Shown in pieces: positions 5,101 to 55,771 of a stretch of DNA of 64,000 nt (the stretch's first letter is position 1; each line of letters begins with the position of its first letter). The notes beneath the pieces are model-generated. The model did not search any database. It was not told where the DNA came from and saw nothing but the letters and a program-made list of their open reading frames with translations. Both the position numbers and the translations under genes were made by a program. The stretch comes from an uncultured Clostridia bacterium (GTDB taxonomy: Bacteria; Bacillota; Clostridia; TANB77; CAG-508): contig CAMKBC010000001.1 of NCBI GenBank assembly GCA_946410665.1, forward strand, positions 13,028-77,027, in the 5' to 3' direction.

Positions 5101-8043
5101 CTATCTTTGAACTTCTTGCTTAATATAAGCTTCAATTGTATCGCCTAAGATAATATCGTTGAAGTTCTCAATTTGAATACCACATTCAAATCCTGCAGAA
5201 ACTTCTTTAGCGTCATCTTTAAATCTCTTTAATGAAACAAGTTTTCCTTCATGGATAACAACACCTTCTCTAATTACTCTAACTCCTGCATTTCTTGCTA
5301 CTTTACCATCTGTTACATAGCATCCTGCAATTGTTCCAACATTAGAAACTTTGAATACTTGTCTAACTTCAGCATTACCAATTGTAATTTCTTGATAAAC
5401 TGGTGCAAGCATTCCCTTCATAGCATTTTGAACATCTTCTAATGCTTGGTAAATGATTGAGTATTGTTTAATTTCAACGCCTTCTTTTTCTGCTAATTGT
5501 TTTGTAGCTCCAACAGGTCTTACGTTGAATGCAATAATGATAGCATTTGCAGCTTTTGCAAGTTCAACGTCTGATTCTGTAACAGCTCCAGCGCTTGAGT
5601 GTAATACTTTAACTAAAACTTCTTCGTTTGATAATTTTTCAAGTGATGACTTGAATGCTTCTGCAGTTCCTTGAACGTCAGTCTTAACGATAATGTTAAA
5701 TTGTTTTAAGTCATCATTCTTCATCTTATCGAATAGGTTATCAATTGTAACCATATTATCGTTGCTAATCTTCTTTTCTCTATGTTCAATCTTTCTTTGT
5801 TCGATTAAGTGTTTAGCAACTTTTTCATTTTTAACTTCGTAAAGAATATCTCCTGCAGCAGGAACGTCTTTTAAACCTGTGATTTCAACTGGTGTAGAAG
5901 GTCCAGCTTCTTTAATATTCTTACCTTTATCATTTTTCATTATTCTGATCTTACCAATAGCTTCACCAACGATGATTGTATCACCTGCGTTAAGTGTTCC
6001 TCTTTGTACTAAGATTGATGCGATAGGGCCTTGTGCCTTATCAAGTCTAGCTTCAATAACAACACCTTTTGCTTGTCTATTTGGATTAGCTCTTAAGTTA
6101 GCCATATCAGAAACAAGTAATACCATTTCTAATAAGTTATCAATGTTGATGTTTTTCTTTGCAGAGATTGGAACATAGATTGTTGATCCACCCCATTCTT
6201 CTGGAACTAATTCATATTTCATTAATTCTTGTTTTACTTTATCAACATTTGCACCTGGTAAGTCGATCTTGTTTACTGCAACAATAATTGGAATGTTAGC
6301 AGCTTTAGCATGGTTGATAGCTTCAACTGTTTGAGGCATAACACCATCATCAGCAGCAACAACTAATATTGCAACGTCAGTAATTTGAGCACCTCTAGCA
6401 CGCATACTTGTGAATGCTTCGTGTCCTGGTGTATCTAAGAATGTAATTTCTCTATCATTAATTTTAACTTTGTAAGCACCTATATGTTGAGTAATACCTC
6501 CGGCTTCGCCTTCGATAACATTTGTTTTTCTAATAGCATCAAGTAAAGAAGTTTTACCATGGTCAACGTGACCCATAACTACAACAACTGGTGGTCTAGC
6601 TACTAAATCTTCTTCCTTATCTTCACTATCATCAAATAAGATATCTTCGTCTTTTACTTCAACTTTCTTGTTTGCTTTAACTCCGAAACTATCAGCTACT
6701 AAATATGCTGTATCAAAATCTAACTCTTGGTTAATTGTAGCCATGATTCCTAAATCAAATAATTTCTTTACAACTTCTGCTGATGTTTTCTTTAACTCTG
6801 TTGCTAAATTCTTAACAGAAATAATTTCACCAATATCAATTTCTTTAAGTTCGAATATTTTTTGTTTAGAAACAGTTTCTTCTTTCTTAACTTTTCTTCT
6901 CTTACCATGTCTTGAAGATAAATCATAGTAATCAAGCATTCCGCCGTCTTCTGATTCATACATGTTAGATAATTTGTCAGTAGATTTAAGGTCTCTTAGT
7001 TTGTATTCATCAAACTCGTCTCCGCCTTCCATTCTTCTTGATTTTCTAACATTCTTTTTCTTTTCTTCAAATACTCTATTAGCTTTTTGCTTATCAATCA
7101 TTCTGTTAGAATAATTTCTGCTTCCAGCTTGATCTTCAAATGTTTCAGGAGCGCTTACTTCTTCTTTTCTAGGCATTGGTTTTCTGAAATTATCAGAACC
7201 TTGATTTGTATTTCTTGGTTTAAATTCACCTTGTTGTCTATTATTTCTGAAGTTTCCTTCTCCTTGATTTCTAGTGAATCCAGGTCTAAAGTTATTGTTT
7301 CTATCTTGTCTGAAACCTTCGCCTCTATTATTTTTGAATTCGTTATTTCCTGCATTTGGTCTATTAAAGTTAGCATTACTATTTAAAGCTCTATCAGCTC
7401 TTTCAGTTCTTCCTGATAATTTAGAACTTCTCTTTTCAGCTGGTCTTGGAGCAGATTCCTTTGCAGGTGTTTCTGTTCTAATAACTGGCTTTTCTGCTTT
7501 GGCTGCTTCTTCAGCTGCTTTGGCTTCCTTAGCCTTTGCTTCTTCAGCTGCCTTTGCCTCTGCTGCTTTCTTTGCTTTTTCAGCTGCTTCCTTCTTAGCT
7601 TTTTCTTCAGCTTCTTTCTTTGGATCTTTTAATCCAAATAATTCTGCAACAGACATAGGTTTTTGTTGTTTTTCTCTATAAACAATATTATAGTTTTGAT
7701 TTGTACGTTGTTTAGTAAAACCAATATCATTTCTATTTACAGTTGGTGCTTTCTTAACTGGTTTTTGATCTTCTTCAACGATAACTTCTCTTCTAATAAT
7801 TACATTACCTGTTGTCTTCTTTGTTGCTTTTTCATTATTTTCTTCTTTACTCTTATTTTCACTTTTAGGTGCTTCTTTTTTGCCTGATTTTTTTACACTA
7901 GCTCTAATTTTCTTAGCATCTTCATCTTCAACTGAACTCAAGTGGCTCTTTACATCTAAACCTAGGTCTTTTGCAATTGCTACAAGGTCTTTGTTGTTCA
8001 TATCTAATTCTTTTGCTAGTTCAAATATTTTAATTTTCCCCAA
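5101..8043 (-). CDS. infB: Translation initiation factor IF-2
   Basis: G-domain motifs [20 protein letters not shown] and NKID. Long A/E/K/N-rich N-terminal region. TTG start sits 8 nt after GGAGG. Confidence 0.97.
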
Positions 8044-8068
8044 TATTTATACCTCCTAAGTTTAAACC

Positions 8069-9337
8069 TTATTCTTCCCCTTCTTCAGATTTTTTTGTTT
8101 TTCTTTTTCTTGTTTTCTTTTCAGTTACTTCTTCAGCAACTTCTTCAACAACTTCCTCAACTGGAGCTTCAACTTCTTCAGCAACAACTTCTGCTACTTC
8201 TTCAGTTTCTTCTACTGATTCTTCAGCAGTTTCTCCATTTTGAGCATTTTGTAACATTTCTCTAAATTGAGATTCTGATTTAATATCAATTTTCCAATTT
8301 GTTAATTTATGTGCTAATCTAGCATTTTGTCCTGATTTACCAATTGCTAATGATAATTGATCATCTGGAACAATAACTTGTGCAAAGTTTTCTTCAGCGT
8401 TGCAATCAACAGCTAATACTTGTGCTGGTAATAATGCTGCAGAGATGAATGTTTCTGGTTGTTCATTCCATTCAATAACGTCAATCTTTTCACCATTTAA
8501 TTCGTTGATGATGTTTTGAATTCTTATACCTTTTTGTCCAACGCATGATCCAACTGGGTCAATATTAGGATTTGGTGAATAAACTGCAATTTTACTTCTT
8601 AATCCTGGATCTCTTGAAATACTCTTGATTTCGATAACTCCTTCATAAATTTCAGGAATTTCAATTTCAAATAATTTTCTTACAAATTCAGGGCTTGTTC
8701 TTGATAAAACAATCTTTGTACTTCCTTTGATTCCTTTTTCAACCTTTACGATAACAGCTTTAATCTTGTCGTTAACGTGATATTCTTCAGTTGAAACTTC
8801 TTGAATCTTAGGCATAATACCTTCAACTTTTCCTAAGTCCATGATAACTGCAGATGAAGTAACTTTTTGTACTAAACCAGTTACGATTTCACCTTCTCTA
8901 GCTGAGAATTCGTTGAATACTAATTCTCTTGAAGCTTCTCTAATTTTTTGTTTGATAACTTGTCCAGCTGTTTGTGCTGCAATTCTTCCGAAATTCTTTG
9001 GGAATAATTCGATTCTAATTACATCTCCAGCTTTGTATTCTTTATTAAGAACATGTGCTTCTTTTAATGAAATCTCTTTTGATTCATCTTCTGGAGTTCT
9101 AACAACTGTCTTTTCTTGATAAATATGCATGCTACCATCTTTTTTATCAAATTCGATTACTACGTTTGTTTCATCACTTCCGAAATCTTTCTTGTATGCT
9201 GAAACTAATGCATTTTGGATAGATTCTAGAAGCATTCTCTTATCTAGTCCTTCTGATGCTTCTAATTCATCTAATGCTGCTAACATTTCAGTTGTATCAA
9301 TTCCTTTGTATTCTGCCTTCTTTACTCTTTTTTTCAT
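8069..9337 (-). CDS. nusA: Transcription termination/antitermination factor NusA with an acidic tail
   Basis: S1 and KH regions (GEIVTGLVQKV..., CVGQKGIRIQNI, AIGKSGQNARLA). I prefer ATG 9337 (MKKRVKK), just after the rimP stop and downstream of GGGAGG. The track start at 9361 lacks an RBS. Confidence 0.93.
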   Translation of the reverse strand: MKKRVKKAEYKGIDTTEMLAALDELEASEGLDKRMLLESIQNALVSAYKKDFGSDETNVVIEFDKKDGSMHIYQEKTVVRTPEDESKEISLKEAHVLNKEYKAGDVIRIELFPKNFGRIAAQTAGQVIKQKIREASRELVFNEFSAREGEIVTGLVQKVTSSAVIMDLGKVEGIMPKIQEVSTEEYHVNDKIKAVIVKVEKGIKGSTKIVLSRTSPEFVRKLFEIEIPEIYEGVIEIKSISRDPGLRSKIAVYSPNPNIDPVGSCVGQKGIRIQNIINELNGEKIDVIEWNEQPETFISAALLPAQVLAVDCNAEENFAQVIVPDDQLSLAIGKSGQNARLAHKLTNWKIDIKSESQFREMLQNAQNGETAEESVEETEEVAEVVAEEVEAPVEEVVEEVAEEVTEKKTRKRKTKKSEEGEE

Positions 9338-9344
9338 TTTTTTA

Positions 9345-9806
9345 TTAATCCTCCCACTCATAAACTGTTTTCATAGTTGAGATATTATTTCTGTCAATTT
9401 CTATATTTTCATTGTTTATGTCTAATATAATGTTGCTTTCTGAAAAGCTTATTAAATTTCCTATTAAGACTTTATCCTCATTTACTTTCTTATAAGTATG
9501 TACCTCAATCTTAGAATTGATTGCTCTCTCAAGCTGAGCATCATCTCTGATTCTTCTTTCAAGTCCAGGTGAAGATACTTCAAGTAAATATGAACCTTTT
9601 ATAAAATCATTTTCATCAAGAATTGGATCGATTGTTTGGCTAACCAATGCACAATCATCACTACTAATTACTTCATCTTTTTCAATAAATACTCTTAAAT
9701 AGTAGTCTTGGGCCTCTTTTTCATAAATAATGTCATAGACCTTGAATCCTAAGTCATTGATGACTGGTTCAAGAACTTCTTTAATTTTTGTTTCTAAACT
9801 AGTCAA
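9345..9806 (-). CDS. rimP: Ribosome maturation factor RimP
   Basis: YLRVFIEK...LEVSSPGLERRI is typical of RimP. The likely start is TTG 9806, 5 nt after AAGGAG. The track ATG at 9821 has no RBS. Confidence 0.88.
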   Translation of the reverse strand: MTSLETKIKEVLEPVINDLGFKVYDIIYEKEAQDYYLRVFIEKDEVISSDDCALVSQTIDPILDENDFIKGSYLLEVSSPGLERRIRDDAQLERAINSKIEVHTYKKVNEDKVLIGNLISFSESNIILDINNENIEIDRNNISTMKTVYEWED

Positions 9807-9847
9807 TTTAACTCCTTCCATCTTTTACCAATTTTAAAGCAACAATT

Positions 9848-9871
9848 AAGAGAGGAATTTCTTCCTCTCTT
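9848..9871 (-). promoter_or_regulatory. 5' UTR hairpin upstream of rimP (rimP-leader-like element)
   Basis: Perfect 10-bp stem AAGAGAGGAA/TTCCTCTCTT with a 4-nt loop, located between a promoter-like site and the rimP RBS. Confidence 0.4.
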
Positions 9872-9895
9872 GCGCTCTTTTTTATGTACATACTC

Positions 9896-9925
9896 ATTAT
9901 ACTCCTAAAAATGGCCATAAGTCAA
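9896..9925 (-). promoter_or_regulatory. Sigma-A-like promoter candidate (P2) for rimP-nusA-infB
   Basis: On the minus strand: TTGACT (9925-9920), 18-nt spacer, TATAAT (9901-9896). Confidence 0.45.
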
Positions 9926-9945
9926 GTAAATTCAGTATTTTCTTA

Positions 9946-9985
9946 TAAAAAAACAGAGCCTAGATATATTATAATCTAGGCTCTG
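9946..9985 (-). terminator. Strong intrinsic terminator or attenuator upstream of rimP
   Basis: 10-bp stem CAGAGCCTAG/CTAGGCTCTG with a 12-nt AT loop, followed on the minus strand by TTTTTTTA. Confidence 0.7.
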
Positions 9986-12254: not shown

Positions 12255-14441
12255 TTATTGTCTCTTTGCTTCCTCAATTAATGTAACTTTTCTAATATCT
12301 ACATTAAATAGGTCTTTTTCCACAATTATATTAATTTTTTCCTTATTTACCTCTTTTATATCCCCAACTTTCAATAAAACTTCGTTTGTTTCGTCCATGC
12401 CAACCGGCAAAGTTTTGCTTACGTTGTTGTACATTATGATATTGCTGAAGAACAGCATATGATTCTCAGCAGTTGTTTTTGCTTTGTAAATTTTCTCTGT
12501 TTCATCATTTTCAACTAATTCATAAGGATTAATTGTGGCTGTTATAAAGCCTTTATTTCTTTTATCATAGTAAATTTCCATGTCATATTTACAAGAAATT
12601 TTGTTATATGCTTCATTTAGTAATCTACCATAATTTCTACATGTTTCTTTAAAATCTTCTAATGTTGTATCATTAGTAAATTTTAAAATTGAGTACAATT
12701 CACGTGGATTTTCTCTATGTTGTTTGAATTTTAACTTCTTAATATTATCTGATTCATCACCAATTCCACCAAATAGTGATTTATATTGGTCTTGATTCTT
12801 TAGATTTTCTTTTAACGAATCATAACATTCATCTATTAAATATGTATCGCTTTTTGTAACTATAGCATTAAGTGCTGGTAATATGTACTTAGATAAGAAT
12901 ACAGCATTGCACTCTTCGTCACTTAATTTTTGTCTTTGTAGTGAATCAACATCCAATCCAAGATCATCTCTGTCTTCATCATAATTGAAAACAGGGCGTT
13001 TTTTGATGTTCTCACCTTGTGCTTGACCTTCTGCCAACTCATTTGCATTGTCTTTATTAGTAAATCTCCAGAAATCAAATAAGTTTTTCTTATGTTTTTG
13101 AATTTCATCAAGATATTTTTGTGCATTATCAGTTTTTCTAGTCATATTCTCTTGTTTTAATAACAACACTTTAATATCCGCTTCTAATCCCTTTGCTTCA
13201 GATGAAATCTTTTTAACTTCTACTGAATTCTTTACTAAATCAGCAACTGTGAATATGTCAGCAAATTTTGAATAGTCTTGCTTATCCACACTTACCTCTT
13301 TTTCTTTAATTTGCTTTACTGAAATACTCTTCTCTTCGTTTAGTCTTGCAAGTAAGTTCTTATTCTCTGTAATAACCTTCTTGTTATTTCTAAAGAAATA
13401 CTTAACTCTCTTGAAAACACTCTTCTTACAATTCATGAATTCAAAGATTTGTTTTTCTTGTTTAACATAGATTAAACTTTGTTTCTTAAGAATTTCGTGA
13501 ATCTTTTCAATTTTTTCTTTATTTATTTCTATTTCATTCTTTAAAGAGTATTTTAATCCTTGTTGTCTTCCTGTTTCATTTGAAATAAACTCTTGAATAT
13601 TCTTAATTGTAATTACTTGCTTATCATATGAAAGTGTAAAGTTTCCTTTTTCATCTATTCCAGGATCAAATTTATACAAGTAATTTGTTTCTGTTGCTAA
13701 AACATATAAAGCTTTTAAAACTGTATAAAAGTTTTTAGCATCAACTATATCTTTAATAACGGTTCTGTACTTAGTTGAGAAGTTGTCTTTAAGCTTTGTT
13801 TCACCCATGATGTATAATGTGTTTTCTTTTTCGCCTTGAACCTCAACTATTTCTGGCCATTGATTTGTAAATAGTTTGATGTAAGTTACAATATCTTCTA
13901 TTTCTCTACCTGTAAAATATGTTTCACTAATTTCTTCTTTGCATATTGGAACAAATATATCTGTTTTATCATCTTCTAGTTTTTTCTTGATAACATAAGC
14001 TAAAGCTTGGTTTTCTGTTTCTCTAGCTGGTGTTAGCATGAAATATTTATCATCTTCTTTAGAATAGTATATTTGCCATAAATAGTTTTTATCATATTTA
14101 ATGAAATATGGAATCTGCTTTTCAAATTGCTCTTGTTGCTTTTCGATATCTTTAATGTCTTTTTGTGTTACTCCATTTATCCATTTTTCAAAAGCTTCTT
14201 TGTCTTGCTTTATATAGTCTTGTAATGGTAAAGCTTCCATGAATCTTTCTGTAATATCAGTTGTTCTGTCAGTATCACTAACTAGTACTTGTAACTTCTT
14301 GATATTTACTCTTTTATATACTTTATATTTACCAACATTATCCCCAGAATTAAATGGTTTATAGTCTGGTTTTACGCTTTTTAGCTTCGTAGATAATCTT
14401 GTTAATTTTAATCCAATGTAATCTAAAATTGTTTTAGACAA
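12255..14441 (-). CDS. Hypothetical 728-aa protein with a K/E-rich central coiled-coil-like segment
   Basis: Long uninterrupted ORF. TTG start sits 8 nt after AGGAGG, and 18 nt downstream of the ThrRS-like stop. I recognise no catalytic motif. Confidence 0.7.
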   Translation of the reverse strand: MSKTILDYIGLKLTRLSTKLKSVKPDYKPFNSGDNVGKYKVYKRVNIKKLQVLVSDTDRTTDITERFMEALPLQDYIKQDKEAFEKWINGVTQKDIKDIEKQQEQFEKQIPYFIKYDKNYLWQIYYSKEDDKYFMLTPARETENQALAYVIKKKLEDDKTDIFVPICKEEISETYFTGREIEDIVTYIKLFTNQWPEIVEVQGEKENTLYIMGETKLKDNFSTKYRTVIKDIVDAKNFYTVLKALYVLATETNYLYKFDPGIDEKGNFTLSYDKQVITIKNIQEFISNETGRQQGLKYSLKNEIEINKEKIEKIHEILKKQSLIYVKQEKQIFEFMNCKKSVFKRVKYFFRNNKKVITENKNLLARLNEEKSISVKQIKEKEVSVDKQDYSKFADIFTVADLVKNSVEVKKISSEAKGLEADIKVLLLKQENMTRKTDNAQKYLDEIQKHKKNLFDFWRFTNKDNANELAEGQAQGENIKKRPVFNYDEDRDDLGLDVDSLQRQKLSDEECNAVFLSKYILPALNAIVTKSDTYLIDECYDSLKENLKNQDQYKSLFGGIGDESDNIKKLKFKQHRENPRELYSILKFTNDTTLEDFKETCRNYGRLLNEAYNKISCKYDMEIYYDKRNKGFITATINPYELVENDETEKIYKAKTTAENHMLFFSNIIMYNNVSKTLPVGMDETNEVLLKVGDIKEVNKEKINIIVEKDLFNVDIRKVTLIEEAKRQ

Positions 14442-14459
14442 TTTATTATCCTCCTGTTT

Positions 14460-15683
14460 TTATTCAGTATCTCTTACGTATCCTTCAGCTGCTAATCTAT
14501 CGTTAATCTTGTTTATCAATTCTTTAACATCTACTGGAATTTGTTTTCCTTCGCTGCATAAATATAATTGATCTCTATTTAATCCATCTTTCTTTGCTAC
14601 TAAAACATAAGGTATTTTAATCTCATTATTATGGTCAATTCTCTTTTGAACACTTATGTTTACGTCATCTACTTCAACTCTGATTGAGTTTGCTACGAAC
14701 TCTCTTCTTGATTGTTCTGCAAATTTCTTAGTATTTGGCCCATCTGTGATAATAACAACTTGGTGAGGCTCAATCCAAAGAGGTATGTTACCATTGTATT
14801 TGCTAATTAATATCCCTAATAAGTTTTCATAACTACCTATTAAAGTATTATGGATGTATATAGGTGTCTTTTCTTCATTATCAATATTTGTATAAGCCAA
14901 GTTAAATCTATGAGTAATTTCGAAATCGACTTGAATTTTTGAAAAGTTTACACCATCTTGTTTTGCTCTAATTATTGGTCCAAATATTTTCGCCTTGTTG
15001 TTCACTGTGTACTCTAGTCCTAAATCTTCCAAAGCCTTTTTCATTGCAGTAGTAACATGATCCCATTCTGCTATTGTTCCGATGTAGTCTTCTTTCTTTG
15101 CCTCATTCCATGTGCATATCTCATATGTGATGTTATCTAATTGCATCTTTTCGATTAATGCTTTTTGGAATTTCAATCCATTGTATATTTCTTGCTCTAC
15201 ATTTTCTGGCTCACAGAAAACGCTTGCATCAGACATTGTAAACTGTCTTACTACGTTTAAACCTTTTAAGTCTTTTTCATTTCTATATACAGTAGAAGTT
15301 TCACATAATTTAACTGGAAGCTCCCTGTAACTGTGTTTCTTTATACCAAAAACAGCACAATGAAATGGCTCAACTTTAGGTCTTAAAACAAAGTCATTCT
15401 CATCATCGCCAAGATTTTCAGTGTCTGTATCAATAATAAACATTTCTTCTTTAAGCGTATCGTCGTATCTGTCTTCTATCTTGTAAATGGATGAACTAGA
15501 AACATTCGGTGTTCTAACAATTTTATATCCGTATCTTTCTTCCAAATACTCTATGTAGTTACGTAGATTCTTAATTAAACGAGCGCCTCTTGGAAGCATA
15601 ATAGGAAATCCTTTTCCTATATAATCAACTGAAGTAAAAAGTTCTAATTCAGCGCCTAATTTATTAATTTCTGCTGATCTCAT
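14460..15683 (-). CDS. Threonyl-tRNA-synthetase-like class II paralog: catalytic core plus anticodon-binding domain only, zinc site not conserved
   Basis: HSYRELP, YRNE (motif 2), IHNTLIGSYENLLGIL (motif 3 region) and PHQVVIIT align to ThrRS. No TGS or editing domains. Cys->Glu and His->Ser at Zn ligands. Start set at MRSAEINK (ATG 15683) because a promoter lies inside the upstream ORF extension. Confidence 0.8.
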   Translation of the reverse strand: MRSAEINKLGAELELFTSVDYIGKGFPIMLPRGARLIKNLRNYIEYLEERYGYKIVRTPNVSSSSIYKIEDRYDDTLKEEMFIIDTDTENLGDDENDFVLRPKVEPFHCAVFGIKKHSYRELPVKLCETSTVYRNEKDLKGLNVVRQFTMSDASVFCEPENVEQEIYNGLKFQKALIEKMQLDNITYEICTWNEAKKEDYIGTIAEWDHVTTAMKKALEDLGLEYTVNNKAKIFGPIIRAKQDGVNFSKIQVDFEITHRFNLAYTNIDNEEKTPIYIHNTLIGSYENLLGILISKYNGNIPLWIEPHQVVIITDGPNTKKFAEQSRREFVANSIRVEVDDVNISVQKRIDHNNEIKIPYVLVAKKDGLNRDQLYLCSEGKQIPVDVKELINKINDRLAAEGYVRDTE

Positions 15684-15717
15684 ATTAATCCTTTCAATTA
15701 AATAGATAATCAACGAA

Positions 15718-15746
15718 ATTATATCATTACGAATTTTAAATAACAA
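15718..15746 (-). promoter_or_regulatory. Sigma-A-like promoter for the ThrRS-like operon
   Basis: On the minus strand: TTGTTA (15746-15741), 17-nt spacer, TATAAT (15723-15718). This leaves only about 30 nt of 5' UTR, with no room for a T-box. Confidence 0.45.
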
Positions 15747-15761
15747 TAGAAATTACACTTA

Positions 15762-15799
15762 CAAAAAGAAAAAAGTAGCCAATAAAAATTAGCTACTTT
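15762..15799 (-). terminator. Intrinsic terminator after the Xer recombinase gene
   Basis: Stem AAAGTAGC/GCTACTTT with a 12-nt loop, then a T-run on the minus strand. Confidence 0.55.
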
Positions 15800-15818
15800 T
15801 TGTTGATTTTATATTAAA

Positions 15819-16700
15819 TTACGCTCTTGGGAAAGTATGTTTATATACATCTCTCAATTCTGCATTTTCGAAACTAGCATAAACTTTTGTTGATGAAATA
15901 TCTGAGTGCCCTAGCATTGTTTGAATAGATTTCATATCTGCTCCATTTTGTAATAAGTGTGATGCAAATGAATGACGTAATACGTGTGGAGTAATATCTT
16001 TTTCAATATGAGCTTTTTCTTTATAATATTTTACGATTTTCCAGAATCCTTGTCTTGTTAATCTTGAGCCGTTCATATTGATGAATAATGCTCTATTGTT
16101 TTCATCTTTTAACAAGATTGGTCTTGCATCATTTATATATTCTGTTAAAGCAGCAATTGCCATTCCTCCTAATGGAACATCTCTTGTGCTCTTTCTACTC
16201 TTAATTGAGATAATACCTTGCTCTTCTTTAAAATCTTCAATGTTTAAATCGATGATTTCAGTAACTTTCATTCCTGTAGCATAAGCAACTTCTAGCATTG
16301 CCTTGTCACGAGTTCCTTTTAAATCAACATCTTTTGGTTGCTCTAATAGTAAGTTAACTTCATCTGATGTTAAAACACTTGGAGTTTTCTTCTCTACTCT
16401 TGGTGCTTGTACATTGAATGTTGGATCGTCTTTTATTTTCTTTGTTCTCATAAGGAAGCTATAGAATGATCTTAGTGTTGCTAAGTTTCTTGATACTGTT
16501 GCAGGTTTCTTTCCAAACTCTTTTAAACCATCAATATATTCTTGTACTTCATCATTCTCAATTTTTAAATAGTTAAGTCTATTCATCTCTAAGAATAATT
16601 TGTATTGTTGAATGTCACGATTATAAGATTGTAAAGTGTTGTCAGATAATCGTTTCTCATTTTTTAAGAATTCTAAAAATAGTTTAATTTGTTTGTCCAT
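15819..16700 (-). CDS. XerC/XerD-family tyrosine recombinase
   Basis: C-terminal HVLRHSFASHLLQNGADMKSIQTMLGHSDISSTKVYA (R-H-R-Y catalytic set) and an N-terminal SAM-like core-binding domain. Confidence 0.85.
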   Translation of the reverse strand: MDKQIKLFLEFLKNEKRLSDNTLQSYNRDIQQYKLFLEMNRLNYLKIENDEVQEYIDGLKEFGKKPATVSRNLATLRSFYSFLMRTKKIKDDPTFNVQAPRVEKKTPSVLTSDEVNLLLEQPKDVDLKGTRDKAMLEVAYATGMKVTEIIDLNIEDFKEEQGIISIKSRKSTRDVPLGGMAIAALTEYINDARPILLKDENNRALFINMNGSRLTRQGFWKIVKYYKEKAHIEKDITPHVLRHSFASHLLQNGADMKSIQTMLGHSDISSTKVYASFENAELRDVYKHTFPRA

Positions 16701-55511: not shown

Positions 55512-55587
<76 letters not shown>

Positions 55588-55607
55588 ATTATTAGACATA
55601 AAAAAAA

Positions 55608-55685
55608 TGGCGACCCGGATCGGGCTCGAACCGACGACCTCCGCCGTGACAGGGCGGCGTTCTAAACCAACTGAACTACCGGGCC
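55608..55685 (-). tRNA. tRNA-Asp (GTC)
   Basis: GGCCCGGTAGTTCAGTTGGTTTAGAACGCCGCCCTGTCACGGCGGAGGTCGTCGGTTCGAGCCCGATCCGGGTCGCCA. Anticodon loop is CTGTCAC. Confidence 0.93.
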
Positions 55686-55695
55686 GTAAGTAAAA

Positions 55696-55771
55696 TGGTG
55701 GTCGCTATAGGGCTCGAACCTATGACCCCCTGCTTGTAAGGCAGGTGCTCTCCCAGCTGAGCTAAGCGACC
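55696..55771 (-). tRNA. tRNA-Val (TAC)
   Basis: GGTCGCTTAGCTCAGCTGGGAGAGCACCTGCCTTACAAGCAGGGGGTCATAGGTTCGAGCCCTATAGCGACCACCA. Anticodon loop is CTTACAA. Confidence 0.95.

Follow-up and report, generated by a model that had tools for sequence, protein, structure and literature searches.

The 64,000-nt window analysed here (positions 13,028 to 77,027 of contig CAMKBC010000001.1, assembly GCA_946410665.1) comes from an uncultured Clostridia bacterium. On its minus strand it carries a two-gene unit: a gene derived from threonyl-tRNA synthetase (ThrRS), hereafter the paralog, and directly downstream a gene for a 728-residue protein, hereafter the partner. The initial annotation of this DNA had described the pair of open reading frames, the 18-nt spacer, the TTG start and the length of the second protein. 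All of these hold, with GGAGG as the spacer element (Table 1). The ThrRS-like reading frame spans 14460–15746 (-). Its true start is the ATG at 15683, giving 407 residues up to the end at 14460. GAAAGGA lies upstream of this codon, which fits the starts of all homologues and the 407-residue gene call of a 97%-identical genome. The paralog and partner of the window (12255–15683, -) share one frame, with one TAA stop and six codons between them. This potential read-through fusion is not conserved, as most relatives overlap the pair in different frames; the overlap of stop and start is usually 10–19 nt.

Table 1 Features of the paralog–partner locus, in window coordinates
Feature	Position	Strand	Remark
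ThrRS-derived paralog, 407 aa	14460..15683	-	class II catalytic core and anticodon-binding domain
Glu105 codon at the position of zinc ligand Cys334 (E. coli numbering)	15369..15371	-	HMMER alignment
His108-Cys109 codons (PFHC) beside the former zinc site	15357..15362	-	paralog-specific pair
Ser154 codon at the position of zinc ligand His385	15222..15224	-	HMMER alignment
Asn287 codon at the position of class II motif-3 Arg520	14823..14825	-	HMMER alignment
Spacer from paralog stop to partner TTG, 18 nt, GGAGG ribosome-binding site	14442..14459	-	
Partner coding sequence, 728 aa and stop	12255..14441	-	TTG start at 14441
Partner N-terminal alpha/beta domain, residues 1-281 (predicted)	13599..14441	-	most conserved part of the partner: DRTTD, NYLWQIYYSKE, TETNY
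Partner long helices, residues 282-450 (predicted)	13092..13598	-	helices 282-338, 354-379, 399-450; read as a coiled-coil hairpin
Partner ADP-ribosyltransferase-like domain, residues 483-728 (predicted)	12258..12995	-	AlphaFold and Foldseek
Promoter-like TTGTTA-17-TATAAT with TG extension	15718..15746	-	about 34 nt 5' of the ATG
Intrinsic-terminator-like hairpin, 14-bp stem followed by a T-run	15770..15801	-	after the xerD-like gene

The paralog consists of a ThrRS catalytic core and an anticodon-binding domain. Pfam assigns it tRNA-synt_2b (PF00587, 2.8e-24) and HGTP_anticodon (PF03129, 3.4e-9), with no Pfam match to a TGS or SAD (tRNA_SAD) domain. The TIGR00418 thrS model covers it over profile positions 175–562 of 565 and scores 274.6 bits, below the cut-off of 383.65. 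In the PDB its sequence matches ThrRSs with E-values down to 1.4e-48 (S. aureus ThrRS, 1nyq). Its N-terminus corresponds to residue 243 of the S. aureus enzyme and residue 245 of the E. coli enzyme, which is the start of the catalytic domain. Pfam and the alignment to 1nyq thus bear out the earlier description of a protein that begins at the catalytic domain and has no TGS or editing domains.

The catalytic zinc of bacterial ThrRS is held by Cys334, His385 and His511 (E. coli numbering; the E. coli sequence used reproduces the published numbering). We fixed the register of the paralog by a HMMER alignment to 1nyq, in which RPMNCPHH corresponds to RPKVEPFH, NDSHIF to SDASVF and IHRGVVSTMER to IHNTLIGSYEN. 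Two zinc ligands and the motif-3 arginine are replaced (Table 1), while the third ligand is retained as His278 (E. coli His511), as are R134 and E136 of motif 2. Across 114 homologues the first zinc position is occupied by Gln, Ser, Arg, Glu, Met or Ala and never by Cys; Ser fills the second in 113, His the third in 102 and Asn the motif-3 position in 90. These counts, the alignment and the comparison with canonical enzymes described below uphold the losses listed in the initial annotation. Beside the former zinc site lies a pair specific to the paralog: His108 is found in 114/114 and Cys109 in 113/114 homologues. Cys109 is four residues past the lost Cys, at E. coli position 338, where the canonical ThrRSs of the clade have Met or Val.

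The losses extend well beyond the zinc site. This emerges from a comparison of 133 paralogs with 33 canonical ThrRSs from their clade. Residues that are invariant in the canonical enzymes (97% for E584) and replaced in the paralog include C334, H385, R375, Q381, K465, T482, R520, H309, W310, Y313, K577, R583, E584 and R609, and at several of these positions the paralog shows no constraint. No paralog has K465, which gives way to Ser, Ala or Ile, and only 50% keep R375. The loop of motif 2 is shorter by two residues, and the family has lost the anticodon-contact residues throughout. R363, E365, D383, Y462, Q484, H511, S517 and E519 are kept, and the motifs PFHC, SDAS[IV]F, DFEITHRF and GSYEN are invariant and specific to the paralog. 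The catalytic domain has a mean conservation of 0.72 in the paralog and 0.70 in canonical ThrRS; for the anticodon-binding domain the values are 0.59 and 0.74. To judge by these residues, the paralog has lost most of what a ThrRS needs for threonine selection, for gripping the ATP triphosphate and for reading tRNA-Thr. The alternatives offered in the initial annotation were a changed substrate or lost aminoacylation. The second is now favoured, because more catalytic and tRNA-contact residues are lost than were listed then. The label 'threonyl-tRNA synthetase', which paralog genes carry in at least one source, is almost certainly wrong.

The paralog belongs to a family of more than 300 close homologues of 390–450 residues, and TGS and SAD domains are absent in all 120 among the matches listed. 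About 45 positions are invariant across the family, and the gene has persisted in lineages whose paralogs share only about 45% identity. The dN/dS ratio of the paralog is 0.054 between the window and locus L001 and 0.012 between the window and L081; the corresponding values for the partner are 0.057 and 0.028. Values of 0.012–0.057 indicate that both genes are functional. Breaks in the paralog were seen in two loci: it is split into two reading frames in L018 (8806–9982) and cut to 298 residues in L005 (4622–5518), which could reflect frameshifts, assembly errors or local pseudogenisation.

A search of the paralog profile against 1.84 billion cluster representatives indicates that the family is restricted to a clade of uncultured gut Clostridia. 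The best 150 entries contain about four of paralog type, two of them fragments. Scores then drop from 599/460 bits to at most 369 bits, and 131 of these 150 entries carry the full canonical signature C-H-H-R-E-K-R. Two unrelated, full-length ThrRS-like representatives in this search have also lost their zinc ligands (P0323, 634 residues, M-Y-R; P0329, 638 residues, Y-T-H). Other degenerate ThrRS paralogs may therefore exist outside the clade.

The genomic context ties the paralog to the partner. A scan with the partner alignment, taking one genome per species, found at least 530 relatives, all of them metagenome-assembled genomes of uncultured gut Clostridia such as Clostridium sp. CAG:793; the best 80 loci were fetched (L001–L080). 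The paralog lies immediately 5' of the partner in L001–L029 and L034, the loci whose partners are closest to that of the window. The exceptions within this set are L010, which has no paralog, and L014 and L024, for which there is no upstream sequence. In 15 paralog loci a full-length thrS (637–657 residues) with intact Cys/His/His site and motif-3 Arg is found just upstream. Six diverse paralogs that we looked up all showed the same order, thrS (TGS, SAD, core and anticodon-binding domain), paralog, partner. Altogether, canonical thrS and paralog coexist in 21 related genomes in the order thrS, paralog, 728-residue homologue. The search for an intact full-length thrS elsewhere, proposed with the initial annotation, is thus answered in relatives; the 64-kb window itself contains no thrS.

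After rearrangements the paralog accompanies the partner and not thrS, as seen in the window, L001, L002 and L034. In L026, about 4 kb are inserted between thrS and the paralog–partner pair, and L025 has the same upstream genes. At the place where relatives have canonical thrS, the window carries a gene for an xerD-like tyrosine recombinase (15819–16700, -). This arrangement is common to the lineage of the window, L001 and GCA_016648615.1, which suggests that the position of the xerD-like gene is an old rearrangement breakpoint.

Co-occurrence of the two genes, raised in the initial annotation, proved one-sided: the partner adjoins the paralog in every case examined, but many partner homologues exist without a paralog. 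In at least 14 paralog-less distant loci the partner directly follows canonical thrS, for example in L036 (pgi, thrS, partner). About 30 of the most distant loci have no ThrRS gene 5' of the partner within up to 10 kb of upstream sequence. The position after thrS is ancestral for much of the clade, and the partner is older than the paralog, since it follows canonical thrS where the paralog is missing. The most likely origin of the paralog is one tandem duplication of part of thrS, placed between thrS and the partner. We argue for a local duplication from the tandem position and synteny. Profile scores do not settle the origin, as the clade's own thrS products score 258–304 bits against the paralog profile and two outside ThrRSs score higher, at 357–369 bits.

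Other neighbours of the partner give no functional hints beyond thrS. Synteny with pgi, spoIVA, UDPGP, a hexapeptide transferase, metG with a polysaccharide deacetylase, deoB and fructose PTS genes is lineage-specific only. In L060, L062, L066, L067, L071, L077, L079 and L080 the partner follows metG and a gene for a membrane-anchored polysaccharide deacetylase (locus positions about 7300–9950, within the 10-kb upstream flank). Visual inspection identified metG, for methionyl-tRNA synthetase, by its HIGH and KMSKS motifs; in these loci the partner has a synthetase gene other than thrS nearby. In L086, a single metagenomic contig, a zinc-uptake cluster (1–2523; znuA, ABC ATPase, ABC-3 permease, DUF1980) lies directly 5' of thrS, paralog and partner. 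Phage and plasmid collections gave no match and do not contain the partner gene, and PADLOC gave no hit; a mobile element or defence island was rejected on these grounds.

The paralog and partner appear to form an operon of their own, in which the overlapping stop and start codons of many relatives point to translational coupling. The promoter-like site 5' of the paralog is the top match of a scan of this region (10/12), and the hairpin behind the xerD-like gene would insulate the operon from that upstream gene. Relatives have equivalent terminators 5' of the paralog, and most other lineages have an extended -10 element, a-TG-a-TATAAT, with a short leader at the same distance. Paralog-less partner genes (L033, L035, L037, L040, L043, L047, L053, L058, L076) often have their own terminator and a conserved extended -10 element, TGTGATATACT, about 30–130 nt 5' of the start. 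It resembles the element preceding the paralog elsewhere, and the paralog may have been inserted behind the original promoter of the partner. No T-box or other Rfam leader was detected anywhere in the window, including 5' of the paralog; both the promoter and the lack of a T-box agree with the initial annotation. Canonical thrS of the clade also has no detectable T-box or other known RNA leader, as judged from the loci of eight relatives, which is unusual for thrS of Firmicutes. The intergenic region before thrS is only about 140 nt long in L003 (5813–5953); the equivalent region of L036 spans 7669–7985.

The partner has no sequence match in Pfam (single sequence and 58 family members), NCBIfam, PHROGs, PADLOC or the PDB (sequence and profile). 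Weak, scattered matches to DFP, SOAR, WXG100 and XhlA, mostly helical or coiled-coil families, were treated as noise. The earlier statement that no motif could be named therefore stands, although with a family spanning at least 530 species the protein is no orphan. An AlphaFold2 model computed with a 58-sequence alignment (pLDDT 82, pTM 0.68) places a domain at either end of long helices (Table 1), consistent with the coiled-coil-like centre noticed previously. Foldseek found no credible structural relative of the N-domain, matched SMC/Rad50-type coiled coils only at E > 0.09, and a viral structure library gave nothing solid for the partner. The N-domain was considered as a displaced TGS/editing domain of ThrRS. 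This was rejected, as hhalign comparisons of N- and C-domain profiles with N-terminal and catalytic profiles of the clade's ThrRSs gave probabilities below 1% and no ThrRS N-domain was among the Foldseek matches. An internal duplication of the kind found in binary toxins found no support either (N-domain versus C-domain, hhalign probability below 1%).

In its model, the C-domain resembles ADP-ribosyltransferases (ARTs). With the whole model, the top 20 Foldseek matches in the PDB are all ART toxins (E 3e-3 to 3e-2). Modelled alone, the C-domain reaches pLDDT 86.9 and pTM 0.84, and its top 50 matches are exclusively ARTs of the R-S-E clade (E 4e-4 to 3e-2), including Certhrax, C2-I, C3, CDTa, iota Ia, Plx2A, ExoS/T, ART2.2, VIP2, SpvB and SdeA. 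The Foldseek probability is 0.9–1.0 for most, with TMq up to 0.46 and TMt up to 0.47, below the usual same-fold line of 0.5. The matches agree strikingly, although these scores are borderline. Judged from secondary structure, the invariant H575-R576-E577 places R576 directly after strand 573–575, and the invariant [ST]666-N667 follows a short strand where S-T-S would sit. A loop T677-L-P-x-G-M-D683 is also invariant in the family. Position 687, before the V-[VIL]-[IL]-K strand, is Lys in 26/58, Glu in 14/58 and another residue in 18/58 sequences, and only D683 is conserved in the loop preceding it. As the position of the catalytic Glu is not conserved, we call the partner ART-like and do not file it as an ART.

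We propose, with moderate confidence and by analogy to HisZ, that the paralog is a non-aminoacylating pseudo-synthetase subunit of the partner, acting as a ligand sensor or a scaffold. It would have arisen once, when part of thrS was duplicated in tandem in a sub-clade of uncultured gut Clostridia of low GC content, and strong purifying selection would since have maintained it at the head of the two-gene operon. It would no longer charge tRNA-Thr, lacking the threonine-selecting zinc, the three positive residues at the ATP triphosphate (R375, K465, R520), the anticodon contacts, the acceptor-end motif HWDHY and, at the N-terminus, the domains for tRNA clamping and editing. Retained are the class II fold, the dimer region of motif 1 and a conserved, remodelled pocket with the amino-acid-backbone contacts R363, D383, Y462 and Q484. 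Ligand sensing is plausible because these retained residues contact the backbone of the amino acid. The paralog would bind a ligand for the partner or act as its scaffold, much as HisZ serves HisG or POLG2 serves Pol gamma; the partner itself would carry the novel N-domain and the ART-like C-domain at either end of a coiled-coil hairpin. The HisZ-type role is suggested by the gene pairing, the stop/start overlap and the conservation of the pocket. A physical complex and ligand sensing are inferred, and so would be any ADP-ribosyl-transfer or translation-related activity of the partner. The alignment, the coexisting thrS and the gene pairing support the initial view of a synthetase-derived protein that is not the housekeeping ThrRS and works with its neighbour.

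Several observations weigh against this proposal. With many partners lacking it, the paralog is not essential to the basic function of the partner. The motif-3 Arg is kept in 7/114 paralog homologues, and the site may be less dismantled than it seems, as His108-Cys109 could belong to a metal or ligand site that has been remodelled. For the genome of the window, a canonical thrS is so far an expectation drawn from the 21 relatives. The ART assignment of the predicted C-domain is borderline, as the Foldseek scores are weak (E about 1e-3, TM 0.3–0.47), and without a conserved ExE glutamate the partner may not act as a transferase. The conserved pocket (SDAS[IV]F, QIDFEITHRF, GSYEN, PFHC) and the motif-2 Arg and Glu would also fit an active enzyme with new chemistry.

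The last point leads to the foremost alternative, which we nevertheless consider unlikely: the paralog may be a zinc-free, ATP-dependent ligase for a new substrate, its product being passed to the partner, a small molecule or a tRNA. SerRS-like amino-acid:carrier-protein ligases, AsnA and EpmA are precedents for such a change. Motif-2 R134/E136, D152, Y/F234, Q251, H278 and the motif-3 G-S-Y-E are highly conserved, and the pocket contains the paralog-specific invariant residues S151, S154, E255, H258 and C109. However, the motif-3 position is Asn, Ser, Lys or Gln in 94% of members, and to our knowledge every known active class II-type enzyme retains the Arg. The loss of K465 in all members and of R375 in half argues in the same direction, and the first zinc position is unconstrained, unlike a redesigned specificity site.

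Somewhat more doubtful is a role directed at ThrRS or thrS itself, in which the paralog would form inactive or regulatory heterodimers, or act as a decoy for thrS mRNA or tRNA-Thr, replacing the missing T-box and leaving the partner a mere operon neighbour. Conservation in the paralog peaks at the motif-1 dimer region, which resembles that of canonical ThrRS, and the T-box is missing before canonical thrS in the eight relatives as well as from the window. Duplicated ThrRS subunits are reported to trans-oligomerise in Anabaena (PMC4787780). On the other hand, binding to an operator or by tRNA mimicry is unlikely as the anticodon-contact residues are not conserved, and it is the partner, not thrS, that the paralog accompanies through rearrangements and whose start codon its stop codon overlaps. 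An endogenous regulatory system of gut Clostridia, of a housekeeping type and involving both proteins, is a comparably tentative idea. Here threonine or a related ligand would be sensed by the ThrRS-derived subunit in its remodelled pocket, perhaps at a new His-Cys site, and the subunit would control or target a new, atypical ART-fold enzyme that modifies a component of the threonine branch of translation, ThrRS or tRNA-Thr.

That the pair is a toxin–immunity or defence module, with an ART-like partner aimed at ThrRS or tRNA-Thr and a pseudo-ThrRS as decoy or antidote, is improbable. The structural matches of the partner are ART toxins, the gene order is tightly coupled, and an ART toxin of a type VI secretion system (T6SS) that ADP-ribosylates charged tRNA-Thr(GGU) is known (PMC13617354). 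Yet the partner occupies a conserved chromosomal position beside housekeeping genes in at least 530 species, matches nothing in PADLOC or among phages and plasmids, and has no conserved catalytic Glu. Most of its homologues are without the paralog and hence without an antidote, and low dN/dS with vertical inheritance suits a housekeeping gene better.

Still less credible is a zinc-independent back-up ThrRS for zinc starvation, comparable to the zinc-sparing paralogs known for other zinc proteins. It would fit the lost zinc ligands, as well as znuABC directly 5' of the genes in L086, but this adjacency was seen once only. The ATP-binding, tRNA acceptor-motif and anticodon-contact residues are lost too, and there is no editing domain. 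Anabaena T2, the second ThrRS of that organism, retains its zinc site, which also counts against a back-up role. Its induction by low zinc (PMC9437257) is the remaining parallel. A decaying, functionless remnant of duplication, merely left beside the partner, could explain the tandem origin and the breaks in L018 and L005, but with dN/dS of 0.01–0.05, about 45 invariant positions and retention across lineages with paralogs about 45% identical, this reading is effectively refuted by the selection data and carries almost no weight.

In the window at large, almost every protein gene lies on the minus strand, unlike a 6S RNA gene at 2547–2728 (+; Rfam RF00013, 96 bits). There is a tRNA-Val(TAC)-tRNA-Asp(GTC)-tRNA-Phe(GAA) cluster at 55512–55771 (-) and a lone tRNA-Arg(CCG) gene at 25825–25898 (-). 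No tRNA-Thr gene was found in the 64 kb.

Among known systems, HisZ comes closest to the proposed role. As proposed for the paralog, it is a class IIa synthetase paralog without aminoacylation that keeps its ligand pocket and is encoded with a non-synthetase partner. HisZ works as a subunit of HisG, an ATP phosphoribosyltransferase of known function, whereas the complex of paralog and partner is predicted from the gene pair. HisZ also derives from HisRS and has no anticodon-binding domain, which the paralog keeps, and the hisZ model does not match the paralog (18.4 bits against a cut-off of 271.65). POLG2 combines a class IIa core and an anticodon-binding-like domain with a dead active site, and assists an unrelated enzyme as accessory subunit. 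That enzyme is a DNA polymerase of eukaryotic mitochondria, and the likeness of POLG2 to the paralog is at the level of the fold only.

The truncated architecture of the paralog, core and anticodon-binding domain, is shared by crenarchaeal ThrRS-cat and yeast mitochondrial MST1 (PDB 3ugq, E 7e-40 to the paralog). In both, the Cys/His/His zinc site and the motif-3 Arg are intact, and they are the working ThrRS of the cell. The paralog differs in having lost these residues and in being accompanied by a full-length thrS in relatives. A second ThrRS-family gene per genome is also found in Anabaena (T1/T2), in B. subtilis (ThrS/ThrZ) and in vertebrates (ThrRS-L) (PMC9437257). These proteins are full-length and active in aminoacylation, their zinc sites are intact, and none is known to have such a partner protein.

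By its predicted fold, the C-domain of the partner would share with the R-S-E ARTs (C3 exoenzyme, C2-I, iota Ia, CDTa, Certhrax) a helical N-terminal bundle followed by a split beta core and an Arg after the first strand, with [ST]-N in place of S-T-S. Identity is 10–14% and TM 0.3–0.47, with no conserved ExE Glu and no Pfam ART match. In contrast to these toxins, the partner has no signal peptide or toxin-delivery domain, is linked by a coiled coil to a large novel N-domain, and is chromosomal and vertically inherited. TreThr, the T6SS ART toxin modifying charged tRNA-Thr(GGU), ties the ART fold to the threonine branch of translation (PMC13617354). Unlike the partner, TreThr is a secreted Rhs toxin that comes with an immunity protein and has the canonical Arg/Glu active site, and no sequence or context relationship of TreThr to the paralog–partner locus was found. 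A similar link here is conceivable and serves as a lead only.

A 2022 review of duplicated aminoacyl-tRNA synthetases lists no bacterial ThrRS-derived pseudo-enzyme (PMC9437257), and none was found in further literature searches, in agreement with the initial annotation, which knew of no such bacterial accessory system. The synthetase-derived accessory protein is a known concept; one derived from ThrRS and coupled to an ART-like coiled-coil protein is not known. If the pair is the regulatory system sketched above, no ThrRS-derived pseudo-synthetase would have been known from bacteria before the paralog, nor any synthetase-like subunit of an ART-fold protein. The partner family spans at least 530 species; it is unannotated and, on prediction, ART-like in fold, and the paralog has been fixed under strong selection in a sub-clade. 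HisZ, POLG2, AsnA, EpmA and the amino-acid:carrier-protein ligases each revealed unexpected biochemistry. The function of the present pair would add a new class of pseudo-synthetase to them and could expose NAD-linked or translation-linked regulation in abundant gut bacteria.

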